Origin: Escherichia coli
GTDB lineage: Bacteria; Pseudomonadota; Gammaproteobacteria; Enterobacterales; Enterobacteriaceae
Reading direction: 5' to 3' (one strand)
DNA: 64,000 nucleotides
NCBI RefSeq assembly: GCF_003334355.1
Contig: NZ_QOWP01000019.1
The position numbers were made by a program, and so were the translations under genes. Of the stretch, positions 31,122 through 46,252 are shown one piece after another. The notes under the pieces were generated by a model. It was not told the origin of the DNA. It made no database searches and saw nothing but the letters and a program-made list of their open reading frames with translations. Positions within the stretch are counted from its first letter, which is position 1. Each line of letters begins with the position of its first letter.

Positions 31122-34002
31122 TCTTTTCACTCATCAGGGGCATTGTTTGCTGCAACGCGCTGACGTTCTCCCACACTTTCCAGCCTTCAGGGTGTACATA
31201 TTCGGCTTTCCCGTTCTGGCTGCCGGAAATCTGCGACAGAATAGCCATGCCTTGCGGCTCGACCACCGCCTGATGGAAGAAATCAGCAAGTTTTTGCGGC
31301 GTCAGCAGTTTTATCTGGGCCACGATTTTATCACGCGAATCGAAGCGCATATTGCCGCGATCGAAATCTTTACTTAACTTCGATGCTTCTTCGCCGAGCG
31401 TTTGCGGTGCCTGCAGCATCTGGGTAATTACCGCCTGCTGGATTTGCGCAAACTCATCTGGCTTCATCGCTCGCAATTTTGCCTCTGCGGTTGGGAAAAA
31501 CGCCTTGTAACGCTCCCACAAGAATGAAGGCTGTTTATCATTGCTTTGCAAAAGGAAGCCCATGCCCCACTGACGCCCCACGCTCATTGGAAACGCAAAC
31601 ACGGCATAGCCCAATTGTTCTTCGGTACGCAACTGATTGTAGAACCACGGCTGTACGATCTGCCCCAATAGAGAGCTATAGGCTGAGCTGGTGTATTCAT
31701 CGTAGCCAGTCGGTACAAATACCGCTGCCAGTGCGGAGTCGGTGCTGTTACCGGCTTTTTCAAAGATGACGGATTGTTTTTTATCGACCACTACATCTTT
31801 GTTTCGACACCACTCTGAACCATCAGCGCCCAACTGTTTTTGCACATCGCGTGCCAGCGTTGTTGCCTGGGCCTCGGTCATGTTGCCGATAACCATAAAC
31901 TCTGGTCGAGCCCCTGATTTTAAGGCGTCGCGATAGGCCAGCACCTCTTTCAACGTAATGGAGGGCAAAATTTTACGCCGTTCATCTCGCGAGAAGTACG
32001 GCACTTGCGAGAGCATCTGCGCGGGCATAATCGCCTGCTCAAACGCTTTACCCTTTTCTGCGGAATCCATCATCTGGTTATACCAGGACTTCGCCTGCTC
32101 AAGCTGATCTTCCGTGGCGGTATAGCTAAAGTAGCCTTCCAGCAATGCCTGGAACAGCTGCGGCAGACGCTGGGTGTAACCATTAGCATTAACCATAAGG
32201 CCGTTGTTAGCGTTGGTGGAAAAACTTATGCCACCAACCGACGCCTGGTTGCTTAACTGATCAAGCGCCAGCCCTGCGAGATAATCATTGAGCGCAAACA
32301 TCACCTGATTGCGGGCGCTGTCCATGGCTTTCGGATTACGCAAAATCAGGCTGACATCGGCTTTTGGCTCGCTGGCAAAATAACGGCTTGGCGCATACAC
32401 TACGCGCAGATTCGACTCATCAACAATCAGCTCTGGATGGTCATATTTCTTGTCTGACTTAATCAGCGAGAAATCGTCAGGAATATAAGGGTTAAGCTCT
32501 GGCAAAGAGAGCGCAATGTCGGCGGCTTTTTTCTGCCAGTCGGCGAAAGTTTGTGCGCTGATTTTATCGACCTGATACGGCGCATCGACAAAGTAAGCCG
32601 TTTTGTTGTGCGGCTCTTTCGGGCTGATATACCAGATACGCGCATTCTGCGGCGTCATCATCGCCAGACGTTCCTTTACTGCTTTAGCATCGTACCGATC
32701 GGCAATATTGACTGCATCCAGCGTATGCTCAACAGGAACGCGAATCATGGTATCTGCCAGCCATTCGACGTAATCCATATCACGGGTGATTGACGGATAA
32801 CGGAAGTCGATATCCAGCACATTCGCCAGTTCATCGAAGTATTGTTTATCGATCCCTTTTTCACGTAACAAATTGAGGTAGCTAAAAATAGCCGCCACAA
32901 CCTGATCGCGATTCGCCAGACCTTTATCGGTTAAAGACGCAGAGATCGCTAATACGCCGCTGTTGCCGTTGACGATAGGATCGGAGTTGGCGCTAATGCC
33001 CTCAACTAATCCCTGCTTTTGCAGCCAGTCGGAAAGTGTACCTGGGCTGCGATTACCAATCAGATAGGTAATCAATTCATCGGTTTTGCTACGGAATTTC
33101 GCCGAGTTGTTATCAATACGAAACTCTACGCGCAACACTTTACGCGGCAGCGCCGGGACGTAATGAATGATAATGCCCTTTTGCGCGTCGGTGACTACCG
33201 GCACGGTGATTTCCGGTTTTTTGCTCTCTTTGTTCGGCACGCGACCAAAGGTGTCCGCCGCCATTTTTGCCAACTCCGGCAGCGGTTTATTGCTGTAAAT
33301 AACCGCCTTCATCAGATTGGCGGAATAGTACTTCTCGTGGAAATCTTTCAGCGCCTGCTGCACCGGATTACCAGGTTTGTCGCTTAAAGTTTCGAGGTTA
33401 CCACCAGAAAACTTTGAACCGGGGTGTGCCGGGTTAATGGTTTCTGCGCTGACCTGCGCCATGCGCATCCCGTCACGCGTACGCGCCATGGTTAATTCGG
33501 CATTCACTGCATTACGTTCACGTTCGGCGTATTTCTTGTCGAGCAAGGGTTCTGCAATAGCGTCCGCCAGGCGGTCTACCGCACCGGGCAAGGCGTCGTT
33601 CTCAACTTCCAGATAGAAAGCCGTGCGATACGGTGCCGTGCTGGCATTGTGACTGCCGCCGTGCATTTTGAGATATTCGGCCAGACTGTCAGCCTGCGGG
33701 TACTTTTTCGACCCCATCAGACTCATATGTTCAAGGTAATGTGCCAGCCCCTGGTACGCCTCGGGATCTTCCAGCGACCCAACGGGCACCACCAGCGCCG
33801 AGAGCGATTTAACCGCCTGCGGATCAGAAACCAGCAAGACCACCATACCGTTATCCAGACGTATAGCCTGATACTGGCGGTTATCTTTATCACTTTTACG
33901 GATGGTTTCCTGAATCGGCTGCCATCCCGTTTCTGCCTGACTTAAGGGTGCCCAAAGGGCAACAAACAACAATAATGCTTTGAACCAGGTGCTGCGGGGC
34001 AT
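31114..34002 (-). CDS. ptrA: Protease III (pitrilysin), periplasmic M16 metalloprotease
   Basis: 962-aa ORF with signal peptide and HxxEH zinc motif (HYLEH). Confidence 0.96.
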   Translation of the reverse strand: MPRSTWFKALLLFVALWAPLSQAETGWQPIQETIRKSDKDNRQYQAIRLDNGMVVLLVSDPQAVKSLSALVVPVGSLEDPEAYQGLAHYLEHMSLMGSKKYPQADSLAEYLKMHGGSHNASTAPYRTAFYLEVENDALPGAVDRLADAIAEPLLDKKYAERERNAVNAELTMARTRDGMRMAQVSAETINPAHPGSKFSGGNLETLSDKPGNPVQQALKDFHEKYYSANLMKAVIYSNKPLPELAKMAADTFGRVPNKESKKPEITVPVVTDAQKGIIIHYVPALPRKVLRVEFRIDNNSAKFRSKTDELITYLIGNRSPGTLSDWLQKQGLVEGISANSDPIVNGNSGVLAISASLTDKGLANRDQVVAAIFSYLNLLREKGIDKQYFDELANVLDIDFRYPSITRDMDYVEWLADTMIRVPVEHTLDAVNIADRYDAKAVKERLAMMTPQNARIWYISPKEPHNKTAYFVDAPYQVDKISAQTFADWQKKAADIALSLPELNPYIPDDFSLIKSDKKYDHPELIVDESNLRVVYAPSRYFASEPKADVSLILRNPKAMDSARNQVMFALNDYLAGLALDQLSNQASVGGISFSTNANNGLMVNANGYTQRLPQLFQALLEGYFSYTATEDQLEQAKSWYNQMMDSAEKGKAFEQAIMPAQMLSQVPYFSRDERRKILPSITLKEVLAYRDALKSGARPEFMVIGNMTEAQATTLARDVQKQLGADGSEWCRNKDVVVDKKQSVIFEKAGNSTDSALAAVFVPTGYDEYTSSAYSSLLGQIVQPWFYNQLRTEEQLGYAVFAFPMSVGRQWGMGFLLQSNDKQPSFLWERYKAFFPTAEAKLRAMKPDEFAQIQQAVITQMLQAPQTLGEEASKLSKDFDRGNMRFDSRDKIVAQIKLLTPQKLADFFHQAVVEPQGMAILSQISGSQNGKAEYVHPEGWKVWENVSALQQTMPLMSEKNE

Positions 34003-41306: not shown

Positions 41307-43553
41307 CTATAACCCTCCGCGAATCAGCCCGCCCATGCCGCGACGCTCCATAAAGGCTGCAACCTGATGGCGAACTTCGGTCGCCAGTTGCGCTTCCAGA
41401 CTACGCTGCGCAAGATTTTCTGCTTCGGCATAATCAATGCGCCGCAGCAGGTATTTTACCCGCGCTACAGAACGTCCGTTCATAGACAGATGGCGATACC
41501 CAAGCCCAATGAGGATTGCCACGCACATGGGATCGCCCGCCATTTCACCGCACAAACGGAGATCGATTCCATGTATTTCCGCTTCCCGGGCGATCATCGC
41601 CAGAGCTCGTAACATTGCAGGATGAAGACTGTCATAAATGTTCGCCACCCGGGTATTGTTGCGATCAACGGCCAGAATGTATTGAGTCAGATCGTTGGTG
41701 CCAACAGAGATGAAATCGACCCGCTTTGCCAGATGCGGCAGCATAAATACCATTGACGGCACTTCCAGCATGATGCCGATACGTGGTTTGGGAATTTCGT
41801 AACCGATCATCTCCTCGACTTCACGTCCGGCACGTTCAATCAGGCGGCGTGCTTCGTCAACTTCATCGAGACTGGTGACCATCGGCAACAGAATATTCAG
41901 GTTGCCCGTAGCGGCATTAGCACGCAGCATCGCCCGCACCTGGATCAAGAAGATCTCCGGCTGATCGAGCGTAATGCGAATCCCACGCCAACCCAGGCAT
42001 GGATTCTCTTCGCTGATCGGCATGTAAGGCAGCTGCTTATCTGCTCCGACATCCAGCGTACGCAAGGTGACGGGTTTATCATTGAACATTTGCAGCATCC
42101 CCTGATACTGCGCCACCTGTTCTTCTTCCGACGGGAAACCACTTTGCAGCATGAATGGGATTTCAGTGCGATAAAGACCGATGCCATCAATACGGCTGCC
42201 CAGTTTTTCTTCATGTTCCGGGCTTAAACCAGCATTGAGCATGACTTTTATACGCTCACCGCTTTTTAACTGCGCGGGTAAATTGACGTCATCTTCCGCC
42301 AGACGGCTAAGCTCAATCTCTTCACTAATTAGCCGCTGATATTCTTGCAGCAGTACCGGCTCCGGATCGACCAGCAATTCACCGCGATAGCCATCAACGA
42401 TCAGCGTCCTACGATGCAGCACCGAAGGCTGAATATCCGCGCCCATCACGGTAGGGATCCCCAGCGCACGTACCATGATCGCAGCATGGGAGTTGGCTGC
42501 GCCATCTCGCACGACAACACCGACTAAGCGATCCTGGGGCAGCTCAGCAAGAGTTGTCGCTGACAGTTCATCTGCCACCAGAATGAAACGTTCCGGCCAG
42601 GCGTTCGGCCCTTGATTAGCGTCATCAAGATGAAACAGCAATCGCTGACCCAGCGCACGTAAATCGCCAGCCCGCTCTTTGAGATAGTTATCGCTTAGCG
42701 CGGCAAACTGTTCGGCAAATTTTTCAATGACCGTTTTTACCGCCCACTCTGCCACCGAGCCTTTATCAACCTCGGCAAACAATTCGCGACGCAGCCGGGT
42801 GTCCGAAAGCAGGTGCGAGTAAAGATCGAAAATAGCCGCCGTTTCTTTTTGTGCACCGGCGGCAAAGCGTTTGCTGTAGCGGCGAAACTCGTTTGCCGCT
42901 TCTTCCAGCGCCCCGGTCAGTCGTTCGCGTTCCAGAGCCGGATCCAGCGTTGATGCCTGATACACCTGTTCCATTAAAGGTAACGTGGCATCCTGCCAGC
43001 CTTCGGCAATCGCCACACCAGGTGCTGCCGGTAATGCGCGGATTCGCGTCTGGCGATATTGCCCAAACAAGGCAGTCAACTGCGACTGAGAAAGAATAGC
43101 TGCCATCTGGGTGGCAAGCGTCACCAGGAAGGATTCTTCACTTTCGTCATACTGGCGCAACTCTCGTTGCTGTACCACCAGTACACCAAGCAACTGGCGA
43201 CGTTGAATAATTGGTACGCCTAAAAACGCGCGGAAACGTTCTTCTTTTACGGAGGGGATGTATTTGAAGCTGGGGTGCTTTTGCGCATCTGCAAGGTTTA
43301 TCGGTTCCGCCAGCCTGCCAACCAGGCCGACGATCCCTTCATCAAACGCGAGCGTTACAGTGCGACCGCGTGGTTTTTTCAGCCCCCGGGTCGCCATCAG
43401 GTAGTAACAACGTCGATCATGATCGGCCAGGTAGACCGAACAGACCTCGGTATCCATCGCAAGACAGATGTCGGTAACCAGAATATTTAACGCCTCATTC
43501 AGGCGTGGTGCGCTGGCTACCTTTTCGACTATTTCGCGCAGGCGAGTGAGCAT
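41307..43553 (-). CDS. ptsP: Nitrogen-PTS enzyme I (GAF + PEP-utilising domains)
   Basis: 748-aa ORF recognised as PtsP. Confidence 0.95.
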   Translation of the reverse strand: MLTRLREIVEKVASAPRLNEALNILVTDICLAMDTEVCSVYLADHDRRCYYLMATRGLKKPRGRTVTLAFDEGIVGLVGRLAEPINLADAQKHPSFKYIPSVKEERFRAFLGVPIIQRRQLLGVLVVQQRELRQYDESEESFLVTLATQMAAILSQSQLTALFGQYRQTRIRALPAAPGVAIAEGWQDATLPLMEQVYQASTLDPALERERLTGALEEAANEFRRYSKRFAAGAQKETAAIFDLYSHLLSDTRLRRELFAEVDKGSVAEWAVKTVIEKFAEQFAALSDNYLKERAGDLRALGQRLLFHLDDANQGPNAWPERFILVADELSATTLAELPQDRLVGVVVRDGAANSHAAIMVRALGIPTVMGADIQPSVLHRRTLIVDGYRGELLVDPEPVLLQEYQRLISEEIELSRLAEDDVNLPAQLKSGERIKVMLNAGLSPEHEEKLGSRIDGIGLYRTEIPFMLQSGFPSEEEQVAQYQGMLQMFNDKPVTLRTLDVGADKQLPYMPISEENPCLGWRGIRITLDQPEIFLIQVRAMLRANAATGNLNILLPMVTSLDEVDEARRLIERAGREVEEMIGYEIPKPRIGIMLEVPSMVFMLPHLAKRVDFISVGTNDLTQYILAVDRNNTRVANIYDSLHPAMLRALAMIAREAEIHGIDLRLCGEMAGDPMCVAILIGLGYRHLSMNGRSVARVKYLLRRIDYAEAENLAQRSLEAQLATEVRHQVAAFMERRGMGGLIRGGL

Positions 43554-43565
43554 AATTGGCGTGAC

Positions 43566-44096
43566 TTAACCTCTTTTACGTCGATAAGCAGATGCGTTTT
43601 GTGGTTTTGGCGTATTTTCCTGCAGTGACATCACCACACTCGCGAACTCTTTCATTACCCTACGGTAGACATCACGTTTAAATGACACCACCTGTCTGAC
43701 CGGATACCAGTAACTTACCCATCGCCAGCCGTCAAACTCTGGTGTACTGCTGGTTTGCATATTGATTTCTGCATCGCCGCTCACCAGCTGCAAGAGAAAC
43801 CATTTTTGTTTTTGGCCGATACAAACCGGCTTCGTGTCCCAACGCACCAAACGTTTCGGTAATTTGTAGCGCAACCAGTTACGCGTTGAAGCAAGGATTC
43901 GAACGTCTTTGCGGCTTAATCCTACTTCTTCAAACAATTCACGGTACATCGCCTGCTCTGCGGATTCTCCGGGGTTGATTCCGCCTTGCGGAAATTGCCA
44001 GGAGTGCTGACCAAATCGCCGGGCCCACATTACCTGCCCCTGGCGATTACAAATCACGATACCTACGTTTGGGCGGTAGCCATCGTCATCAATCAC
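43566..44096 (-). CDS. rppH: RNA pyrophosphohydrolase RppH (NudH)
   Basis: 176-aa ORF with a Nudix box ([22 protein letters not shown]). Confidence 0.95.
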
Positions 44097-44240
44097 CGGA
44101 CTACCTCAAAATAAAGCTTTATATACGAATGATTGTTTCATACTCCAGGAAGACGGTAAACCACTCTCTGCAGGGCATTACACACTAATAACAATTGAAT
44201 AACTCACAGTTATGTGCAGAGTTATAAACAGAGGAAGGGG

Positions 44241-44720
44241 TGGATAGCCGTTTTTATTCACCTTTTCTGTGGATAGAGTTGTGAAGAACTACGGAATTAC
44301 TACGGGAAAACCCGGAGCATTCTGAATAAGCCCGATATAGACATTTTAAAATATTCATTATTAGTCAATGCATTACATGTAATTTGAGTAATGAAAAAGA
44401 GTAATTCGTGACCCAGGTCACACCTCTCATTTACGGGTTGGCGAAAGATCAACCAATGCCGTATTTATCCACAGAATGTGCCACTAAGTTAAGCACTGAA
44501 CCACTAAAAACTGGAGTTTCGTCGCACGTCAAGGCTGTAAATGGAAACAGTAGTGGAGGTTTTTCACAGTTATCCCAGCTTTCTGTGGATAACATGGTGT
44601 AAGATCCTGTTTATTTTCAGTGACCAGATTTGGAAAACCCGTTGCAGTGTTGCGCAACTCGATTACCGGCAACCTAAAAAGCAATATAAATCAGAGAATT
44701 GAACAACGCATGTGGAAAAA
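44241..44720. promoter_or_regulatory. DnaA-box cluster consistent with DARS2 (DnaA-reactivating sequence 2)
   Basis: Perfect TTATCCACA boxes at 44465-44473 (+) and 44584-44592 (-), 8/9 matches at 44268-44276 and 44711-44719; DARS2 is known to lie in the rppH(ygdP)-mutH intergenic region. Confidence 0.6.
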
Positions 44721-44780
44721 GTTACACTGCGAATATTCGGCACATAATTGCTGTTTGTTTTTTAACCAAGGTATCATGAC

Positions 44781-45470
44781 ATGTCCCAACCTCGCCCACT
44801 GCTCTCTCCTCCCGAAACTGAAGAACAGTTGTTAGCGCAAGCACAGCAACTTTCTGGTTATACATTGGGAGAACTGGCGGCACTTGCCGGGCTGGTTACG
44901 CCAGAGAATTTAAAACGCGATAAGGGCTGGATTGGCGTGTTACTGGAGATCTGGCTAGGTGCCAGCGCAGGGAGTAAACCTGAGCAAGATTTTGCTGCTC
45001 TGGGCGTGGAACTTAAAACTATCCCTGTGGATAGTCTTGGTCGTCCGCTGGAAACAACATTCGTTTGTGTTGCCCCGTTAACGGGCAATAGCGGGGTGAC
45101 CTGGGAAACCAGCCACGTGCGCCACAAACTCAAACGCGTACTGTGGATACCGGTTGAAGGCGAGCGCAGCATCCCGCTGGCGCAGCGTCGCGTTGGATCA
45201 CCGTTGCTGTGGAGCCCGAATGAAGAGGAAGACCGGCAGCTACGCGAAGACTGGGAAGAATTAATGGATATGATTGTTCTCGGTCAGGTTGAGCGGATTA
45301 CCGCTCGTCACGGGGAGTATTTACAGATACGACCGAAAGCAGCGAATGCGAAAGCGCTTACCGAAGCCATTGGTGCCCGGGGCGAACGGATTCTGACGCT
45401 GCCGCGCGGCTTTTATTTGAAGAAAAATTTCACCAGTGCGCTGCTGGCCCGTCATTTTCTGATCCAGTAG
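44781..45470 (+). CDS. mutH: Methyl-directed mismatch repair endonuclease MutH
   Basis: 229-aa ORF recognised as MutH. Confidence 0.96.
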
Positions 45471-45538
45471 CCATCGCTTTGACCTGCCGCTTTCCGGGCA
45501 TATAATTACCGCTTCATTTTTTTGGCAGGGCTTTTTAG

Positions 45539-46252
45539 ATGTTATTTGCATGGATAACCGATCCTAACGCCTGGCTTGCGCTCGGTACGCTGACGCTGCT
45601 GGAGATCGTTCTTGGGATCGACAATATTATTTTCCTTTCTCTGGTGGTGGCAAAGCTTCCCACAGCACAACGTGCTCATGCGCGCCGTCTGGGGTTGGCG
45701 GGAGCCATGGTTATGCGTCTGGCGCTGCTGGCATCAATCGCCTGGGTTACGCGCCTGACAAATCCGCTTTTTACAATATTCAGTCAGGAAATTTCTGCCC
45801 GTGACTTGATTCTGCTTCTGGGTGGCTTGTTCCTTATCTGGAAAGCCAGCAAGGAAATCCACGAATCCATTGAAGGTGAAGAAGAAGGGCTGAAAACACG
45901 CGTTTCATCATTCCTCGGCGCTATCGTGCAGATTATGCTGCTGGATATTATCTTCAGCCTCGACTCGGTGATTACCGCTGTGGGTCTGTCAGATCACCTG
46001 TTTATTATGATGGCAGCCGTGGTGATTGCCGTAGGCGTGATGATGTTCGCCGCGCGCTCGATTGGTGATTTTGTCGAACGCCATCCTTCGGTAAAAATGC
46101 TGGCGCTCTCTTTCCTGATTCTGGTGGGCTTTACCCTGATTCTGGAAAGTTTCGACATCCACGTACCGAAAGGTTACATCTACTTCGCGATGTTCTTCTC
46201 TATTGCGGTTGAAAGCCTCAACCTGATTCGCAACAAAAAGAACCCGCTCTGA
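45539..46252 (+). CDS. ygdQ: TerC-family inner-membrane protein YgdQ
   Basis: 237-aa polytopic membrane ORF recognised as YgdQ. Confidence 0.88.

Follow-up and report, generated by a model that had tools for sequence, protein, structure and literature searches.

Which chromosomal element is formed by the cluster of DnaA boxes between rppH and mutH, and which of its boxes belong to the functional part of it? Replication of the E. coli chromosome is timed by four extrinsic regulators of the DnaA ATP/ADP cycle, among them DARS2. The window analysed here is a 64-kb stretch of E. coli DNA from a strain of the O121 type (not K-12), in which rppH and mutH diverge from a spacer of 684 bp (44097-44780). 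The original prediction held that this spacer carries two perfect DnaA boxes in opposite orientation 119 bp apart, together with at least two boxes matching at eight of nine positions, and that its location is that of DARS2. An exact-match scan of the 64 kb confirmed the two perfect boxes, whose sequence, TTATCCACA, occurs twice in the whole window, both times in the spacer. Two 8/9 boxes were found as well, at 44268-76 and 44711-19, both on the minus strand.

There is hardly any doubt, in our view, that the cluster is DARS2, the chromosomal DnaA-reactivating sequence of E. coli. The primers listed in Supplementary Table S1 of Kasho 2014 (PMC4245941) and the oligos of the Miyoshi 2021 supplement (PMC8682772) were mapped by exact match, and those for DARS2 itself, for deltaCore, deltaRight and delta21, and for the substitutions of boxes IV, V and VI, IBS1-2 and FBS1-6 all map uniquely, within the spacer. 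When aligned with MG1655, the spacer is identical at 681 of 684 bases and the published 455-bp DARS2 fragment at 453 of 455, the differences in the latter being at 44362 and 44386. The location at DARS2 is thus borne out, and so is the expected alignment to the published core and to the IHF and Fis sites: the core (44254-44288), IBS1-2 and the FBS sites were all located. The MG1655 element has the same flanking genes, with boxes I-VI, IBS1-2, FBS1-6 and V-a to V-c at the same relative positions, and the position given for DARS2 in the literature is 'upstream of mutH' (PMC11317965). The spacer of the window is 100% identical to that of E. coli O121 RM8352, and a match of at least 95% identity was found in 5425 of 5426 complete E. 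coli genomes. One homology arm, MutH-10, is printed in PMC4585315 on the same strand as MutH-9, which is likely a printing issue and leaves the mapping unaffected.

The two differences from MG1655 within the 455-bp fragment lie beside the IHF sites. The one at 44362 is inside the 3-bp spacer between IBS1 and IBS2, and the one at 44386 is just to the right of IBS2, between IBS2 and FBS1; consensus positions are untouched by either. Because of the near-identity with MG1655, we infer that the copy in the window strain would act as DARS2. The element is ordinary and already known, and its identification is correct; as DARS2 of MG1655 has been dissected since 2009 (Fujimitsu 2009; Kasho 2014; Miyoshi 2021; Kasho 2025), it has no value as a discovery. 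Its recognition matters for annotation, since RefSeq shows a doubtful 48-codon gene, ygdT, over a well-characterised non-coding element. It had been claimed that gene annotation misses the element, and RefSeq indeed places no DARS2 feature in the spacer, where the CDS ygdT is the sole annotated feature. The features discussed below are collected in table 1.

Table 1. Features of the rppH-mutH spacer and its surroundings, in window coordinates; mismatches of DnaA boxes are to TTWTNCACA.
Feature	Position	Strand	Sequence	Remarks
ptsP	41307-43553	-		
rppH (ygdP/nudH)	43566-44096	-		
Published 455-bp DARS2 fragment	44231-44685	+		primers MutH-4/MutH-2, exact match
Minimal active fragment (deltaRight)	44231-44463			MutH-4/MutH-11
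DARS2 core (boxes I-III)	44254-44288	+		stretch removed in the published core deletion, MutH-14/MutH-15
DnaA box I	44254-44262	+	TTATTCACC	1 mismatch
DnaA box II	44268-44276	-	CTATCCACA	1 mismatch
DnaA box III	44280-44288	-	TTCTTCACA	1 mismatch; head-to-tail with box II
DnaA box IV	44321-44329	-	TTATTCAGA	1 mismatch; primers Ksh-30/31 bracket 44320-44330
IHF sites IBS1-2	44347-44375			29-bp block of translocation primers traIR/traIL
IBS1	44347-59	+	TAAAATATTCATT	
IBS1/IBS2 spacer	44360-62			3 bp
IBS2	44363-75	-	TAATGCATTGACT	
SNPs relative to MG1655	44362, 44386, 44766			T for C, G for T and C for T, respectively
Fis site FBS1	44399-44413		GAGTAATTCGTGACC	FIS-1U oligo, spans 44391-44421
ORF	44408-44602	+		mechanical, not annotated
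FBS2	44440-54		GGCGAAAGATCAACC	
Essential 21-mer, FBS2-3	44443-44463			primers MutH-11, MutH-17, MutH-24/25
Low-affinity boxes V-a, V-b, V-c	within 44444-44485			
ygdT	44449-44595	-		RefSeq CDS, 48 aa; runs from box VI to box V
DnaA box V	44465-44473	+	TTATCCACA	perfect; substitution primers Ksh-32/33
LexA (SOS) box-like motif	44533-44552		GGCTGTAAATGGAAACAGTA	CTGT-N8-ACAG; between boxes V and VI
Conserved 9-mer	44570-44578	+	TTATCCCAG	TTATCCCAy in other genera; 5 bp from box VI
DnaA box VI	44584-44592	-	TTATCCACA	perfect; substitution primers Ksh-34/35
Degenerate DnaA box	44596-44604	-	TCTTACACC	3 bp from box VI; GATC at 44603 overlaps
ORF	44620-44835	+		mechanical, not annotated; part inside spacer
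Fis site FBS6	44641-44655		GTTGCAGTGTTGCGC	FIS-4U oligo
8/9 box	44711-44719	-	TTTTCCACA	perfect to TTWTNCACA
mutH	44781-45470	+		

The core reads TTATTCACC-TTTTC-TGTGGATAG-AGT-TGTGAAGAA, with gaps of 5 bp and 3 bp; the same gaps, and the head-to-head orientation of boxes I and II, were described by Sugiyama 2019. The one mismatch in box II of DARS2 is also on record (PMC6868365), and the string gTTCTTCACAactCTATCCACAg at boxes II/III has been noted as a 'double DnaA box' (PMC11317965). The layout of a box, 5 bp, an opposed box, 3 bp and a further box, with limits of two mismatches per box and four in total, has a single occurrence in the 64 kb, and 20 shuffles gave none. The 9-mer GGTGGATAG (44239-47) was considered as box I and rejected, as the deltaCore primers start the core at 44254 and 44239-47 is poorly conserved. 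Beyond the core, boxes IV-VI were found dispensable for stimulating initiation (Kasho 2014, PMC4245941).

The IHF and Fis sites follow the core to the right. IBS1 and IBS2 each carry one mismatch to YAANNNNTTGATW in the IHF consensus scan, and the whole block equals the published translocation primers save for the SNP in its spacer. A PciI site (ACATGT, 44375-80) adjoins the IHF sites, and a PciI site abutting the IHF footprint is stated in PMC11724364. FBS1 is the sole exact match to the Fis consensus within the spacer. The FBS2-3 21-mer, which is required (PMC4245941), is identical to MG1655 and conserved across genera, with a GATC at 44447; likewise, the window matches the FBS2-5 oligo without a difference. 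FBS6, at the right end of the series, is poorly conserved across genera and has been reported as dispensable.

According to the mechanism proposed in the literature (PMC4245941, PMC8682772, PMC6868365, PMC11724364), ADP-DnaA would assemble on core boxes I-III, where the protomers on the opposed boxes I and II would interact head-to-head via their AAA+ domains and the protomer on box III would stabilise this pair head-to-tail. IHF bound at IBS1-2 would bend the DNA sharply, which would allow Fis at FBS2-3 (44440-63) to touch the core complex; ADP would be released, and apo-DnaA would leave and bind ATP. Rising ATP-DnaA would then oligomerise from the perfect box V over boxes V-a to V-c, displace Fis and turn DARS2 off, a negative feedback in which box V is described as the nucleation site (PMC8682772). 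IHF- and Fis-dependent release of ADP from ADP-DnaA was shown for the MG1655 sequence (PMC4245941), and in published ChIP experiments DnaA, IHF and Fis bind MG1655 DARS2 in vivo. As far as sequence can tell, the published model fits everything seen in the window. DARS2 is not essential and its deletion phenotypes are mild (PMC4585315); a strain without all four extrinsic regulators is reported to be nearly normal (PMC11331064).

Two related systems help to delimit the element. The core of DARS1 in MG1655 has the same 9-5-9-3-9 layout over 35 bp, with 24 of the 35 bases identical to the core in the window, and DARS1, which is located in the bioD-uvrB spacer, is also upstream of a DNA-repair gene. 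However, DARS1 is 101 bp long, needs neither IHF nor Fis and has a perfect consensus box II, whereas the element in the window is found at another locus, has one mismatch in box II and contains both IBS and FBS. The datA locus resembles DARS2 in being non-coding, in combining clustered DnaA boxes with an IHF site, and in altering the nucleotide bound to DnaA. Unlike DARS2, it promotes ATP hydrolysis, not ADP release, forms head-to-tail ATP-DnaA oligomers, lacks both the head-to-head box pair and the Fis requirement, and is near oriC.

The right half of the element raises a different kind of question. Both perfect boxes, V and VI (their starts 119 bp apart), lie outside the core and outside the minimal fragment (44231-44463), and by the original prediction's own standard, under which the boxes have to be in the functional core, the evidence that it stressed most fails. 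The claim of DARS2 survives because the core is inside the range which that prediction covered, and because one of its 8/9 boxes, that at 44268-76, is core box II. The other 8/9 box (44711-44719) is outside the 455-bp fragment, is poorly conserved and adjoins a promoter-like site (44721-44748, plus strand). The most conspicuous boxes are thus not the catalytic ones, yet they are the most occupied in vivo: in MG1655, Stringer et al. 2024 (PMC11317965) report three DnaA ChIP-seq peaks here, whose coverage rises from 78 near the core through 199 near box V to 213 near box VI, and this last peak, the strongest of the locus, is comparable to those at oriC and datA. Box VI is dispensable in published plasmid assays, and the published mechanism does not account for the role of the right half, box VI included.

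Some further details belong to this half. The ChIP-seq coordinates in PMC11317965 are labelled NC_000913.2 and fall within the spacer only when taken as NC_000913.3; the identity of the peaks is secure either way because the printed box strings settle it. Stringer et al. 2024 (PMC11317965) describe box VI together with its degenerate neighbour as a 'double DnaA box'. The conserved 9-mer on the other side of box VI has three mismatches to the DnaA box consensus. Taken together, the box VI module reads TTATCCCAy-N5-TGTGGATAA-N3-GGTGTAAGA, which is the same 9-5-9-3-9 layout as in the core, and its flanking 9-mers are invariant while the spacer bases vary.

The conservation of the element was assessed in two ways. 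When one genome of each species was searched with a degenerate version of the core pattern, at least 120 loci matched; mutH lies downstream in the same orientation at 77 of them, rppH lies upstream in most, and the pattern recurs between the two genes in Enterobacterales and Vibrionaceae. In a MAFFT alignment of 72 sequences (71 Enterobacterales spacers and the window), the core, the consensus positions of IBS2, the FBS2-3 21-mer, box V and the blocks 44527-56 and 44567-616 are conserved, and the sequence between these conserved elements is near random. Between IBS and FBS, this alignment shows variable sequence of constant length, as looping geometry predicts; the conserved core-IBS-FBS spacing has already been noted (PMC5742627).

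Spacing is also kept in the right half, a regularity of which no description was found in the literature searched. Relative to the core start, the offsets are +211 for box V, +281 for the CTG of the motif at 44533-52 and +330 for box VI; among the matches listed, 65 of 77 species keep every one of them without a single base pair of change, and a perfect box stands at +211 in 67 and at +330 in 66 of the 77. Shifts of box V by 1-3 bp, where they occur, are shared by the motif at 44533-52 and by box VI. The MAFFT alignment shows zero gap columns in 44177-44655, which is overstated, as anchor distances give shifts of 1-3 bp in about nine Enterobacterales species. For comparison, the length of the neighbouring mutH-ygdQ spacer varies freely in the same genomes, where 42 species show 21 different lengths between 53 and 192 bp. 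Outside this locus, 31 matches to the core pattern were observed in other contexts in Gamma- and Betaproteobacteria (among the matches listed), with all three boxes perfect; the neighbours of these trios include priA, xseA and a probable DNA-repair protein.

The motif at 44533-52, for which the DARS2 literature searched offers no name, is a CTGT-N8-ACAG palindrome with an AT-rich centre, located 228 bp upstream of the mutH ATG. CTG-N10-CAG is kept in 71 of the 72 aligned sequences, the two central bases vary, and position 44547, before CAG, alternates between A and C as in LexA boxes. With a matrix built from 30 known E. coli LexA sites, the motif scores 11.6 bits (heterology index, HI, 12.6), just below the weakest of the 30 (12.3 bits), and ranks third in the window, where the top site is inside the rlmM coding sequence. 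Taken by itself, this score is not significant, and the motif is singled out only by its conservation and by the literature on Salmonella and Vibrio. For Salmonella mutH, a LexA box with an HI of 12.99 is predicted 228 bp upstream, the same distance from the start as here and with a similar HI (12.6 for the window motif by our own matrix), and a 3.58-fold induction by nalidixic acid is given (PMC8072944). The mutH promoter of V. parahaemolyticus is bound by LexA in EMSA (PMC3323433). Unlike most SOS operators, this putative one overlaps no recognisable promoter: none was found there by eye or by a promoter scan. In the scan for promoters and terminators, nothing rose above chance level: it gave two terminator-like hairpins and a single weak sigma-70-like site (44721-48), which is probably the mutH promoter. 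An Rfam scan of 43000-46000 at a permissive threshold returned one chance-level snoRNA match inside mutH, and known RNA elements were absent from that region.

These features invite the proposal, which we regard as rather improbable, that the 'dispensable' right half is a conserved composite operator in which boxes V and VI bracket an SOS (LexA) box. The spacings on which it would be built, measured from box V, are about 70 bp to the LexA-like motif and 119 bp to box VI, and are almost invariant in Enterobacterales. No connection between LexA and DARS2 was found in the literature searched. If the proposal were true, DNA damage, acting through LexA occupancy, would influence DnaA reactivation at DARS2; alternatively, DnaA would gate the SOS induction of mutH. 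Such an operator would mirror the DnaA/LexA control of uvrB adjoining DARS1, where the uvrB LexA box follows the DARS1 core at a distance of about 325 bp downstream. Since the right half is regarded as dispensable in published work, its conserved spacing, the LexA-like box and the breakage of ygdT outside Escherichia may be of interest to specialists. The right-half spacing, the LexA-like motif, the box VI module and the core-like trios elsewhere are leads, not results.

The same observations allow a broader reading, possible although we would not bet on it, in which the main role of the cluster, or at least of the right half that holds the perfect boxes, is that of a transcriptional operator where DnaA, possibly with LexA, acts on mutH or rppH, and nucleotide exchange is confined to the left half. 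The ChIP-seq signal, strongest at boxes V and VI and weaker at the core, would suit this reading, as would the near-universal retention of the LexA-like motif between the two boxes and the Salmonella and V. parahaemolyticus data on mutH. It is opposed by the demonstrated role of box V in DARS2 feedback and by the position of the sole sigma-70-like match, at 44721-48, away from the LexA-like motif. That motif, moreover, is equalled or bettered by two chance sites in the window, and in the literature searched no E. coli data on LexA binding at 44533-52 were found.

A similar weighing applies to the idea that the perfect boxes are chiefly high-affinity titration sites for DnaA, independent of nucleotide exchange, which we consider unlikely. 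Two perfect consensus boxes with very high ChIP-seq occupancy are what titration would call for, and a 2025 study attributes much of the chromosome-bound DnaA to datA, DARS1 and DARS2 (PMC12371093). Boxes V and VI, however, stay 119 bp apart in almost all species examined, a constancy that titration would not require, and deletion of DARS2 left the bound fraction of DnaA unchanged in slow growth (PMC12371093).

Could the conservation instead reflect a small protein gene, either ygdT or an ORF of the plus strand, with the DnaA boxes being incidental? RefSeq annotates ygdT, which had been overlooked in the original prediction, in every E. coli genome listed, and direct reading of the sequence finds AGGA 9 nt upstream of its ATG. 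The two plus-strand ORFs (44408-44602 and 44620-44835) do exist as mechanical ORFs and had been predicted to be probably not genes, a view which their absence from the annotation and their fate in other species uphold. Among the 72 aligned sequences, ygdT is intact in 4, its length staying at 147 nt while the stop positions vary, ORF 44408-44602 is intact in 13 and ORF 44620-44835 in none. Whichever direction is read, the peptide stretches that seem conserved are those overlying box V, the motif at 44533-52 and box VI, and because the conserved 'residues' fall on DNA sites, the conservation is at the level of DNA. No report of YgdT expression was found in the literature searched. As the three ORFs are broken in most other Enterobacterales, probably none of them is a real gene, and a coding origin of the conservation is very improbable.

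The number of boxes in the DARS2 stretch is also far from random expectation. The field's consensus, TTWTNCACA, has eight sites with at most one mismatch in the 455 bp, three of them perfect, and the corresponding means in 2000 dinucleotide-preserving shuffles of this stretch are 1.47 and 0.09, neither observed count being reached in any shuffle. That the cluster is a chance occurrence in AT-rich intergenic DNA has next to no probability and is already refuted by these shuffles, by the core layout, unique in the window, and by conservation of the sites across an entire bacterial order, although the spacer is AT-rich (39% GC against 51% in the window) and at least two matches to TTATCCACA appear in 6 of 100 shuffles of the window (mean 0.36). 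The DARS2 stretch is the densest 455-bp window for DnaA boxes in the 64 kb. The only other window with four hits, a cluster at about 31400-31850, was dismissed because it consists of weak T-rich matches inside ptrA.

The right half of DARS2 (DnaA boxes V and VI), which has been reported to be dispensable (Kasho 2014, PMC4245941), seems strongly constrained in its spacing, because its offsets are near-invariant while neighbouring spacers vary in length. Counted from the start of the core (DnaA boxes I-III), box V lies at +211, a LexA-like motif at +281 and box VI at +330 (44254-44592). All three offsets agree to the exact base pair in 65 of the 77 species with a mutH-linked locus among the matches listed (loci L009-L122 of the core-pattern scan); where they move, by 1-3 bp, the three elements move jointly in these matches, whereas adjacent spacers of the same genomes differ widely in length.

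Features of the rppH-mutH spacer
Feature	Position	Strand	Remark
Three well-conserved blocks	44157-44166, 44197-44208, 44220-44230		between rppH and the 455-bp DARS2 fragment
Difference from MG1655	44362		in the 3-bp spacer between IHF sites IBS1 and IBS2
Difference from MG1655	44386		11 bp right of IBS2
Palindrome GTGACCCAGGTCAC	44408-44421		inside the oligo of Fis site FBS1
ygdT, RefSeq CDS	44449-44595	-	overlies DARS2
LexA (SOS) box-like motif GGCTGTAAATGGAAACAGTA	44533-44552		within published DARS2, boxes V and VI on either side
TTATCCCAG-CTTTC-TGTGGATAA-CAT-GGTGTAAGA	44570-44604		box VI between two 9-mers
TTTTCCACA	44711-44719	-	perfect match to TTWTNCACA, poorly conserved
Sigma-70-like site GTTACA-16-CATAAT	44721-44748	+	only such site found in the spacer
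GTTTTTTAAC	44757-44766		conserved, after the sigma-70-like site

The CTG-N10-CAG of the LexA-like motif is conserved in 71 of 72 aligned sequences, with a variable centre and a low PWM score. The mutH start lies 228 bp downstream, the same distance as that of the LexA box predicted upstream of Salmonella mutH (PMC8072944); no link between the motif and DARS2 was found in the literature open to searching. The two 9-mers flanking box VI are invariant, while the spacer bases differ among genera, and the three elements share the 9-5-9-3-9 layout of the DARS core. A conserved GATC is also present at 44603. Box VI and the right-hand 9-mer constitute the published 'double DnaA box' (PMC11317965), and no description of the left 9-mer was found in the literature searched. 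As for ygdT, its reading frame is unbroken in only 4 of the 72 aligned Enterobacterales sequences, its length is constant, and the 'residues' that it conserves are DNA motifs (box V, the LexA-like box and box VI). The annotation, which sits on top of DARS2, is probably spurious.

At least 31 core-pattern matches occur in other contexts, at loci lacking mutH or rppH (within L004-L123, e.g. L058, L083, L092, L119 and L123), against about 0.1 expected by chance across the whole collection by our own estimate from 21 specified bases. Among the matches listed, the hosts include Nitrosomonas, Methylococcaceae, Massilia, Shewanella and a Coxiella symbiont; the pattern is TTATTCACA-N5-TGTGGATAA-N3-TGTGA..., with a few deviations in boxes I or II, and the third box is most often TGTGAATAA, with a few variants. 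Adjacent genes include priA (at least three loci), xseA, typA and one for a probable DNA-repair protein (TIGR03623), neighbours that recall both DARS1 (beside uvrB) and DARS2 (beside mutH).

Outside the 455-bp fragment, the rppH-side blocks, one of which, AGTTATAAACA, includes the DnaA-box-like TTATAAACA (one mismatch), may be promoter or regulatory elements of rppH. On the other side, TTTTCCACA adjoins the sigma-70-like site, which is probably the mutH promoter. Within DARS2 just two differences from MG1655 are present, flanking the IHF sites, and the FBS1 palindrome, only moderately conserved, was scored as a terminator-like hairpin on the minus strand.
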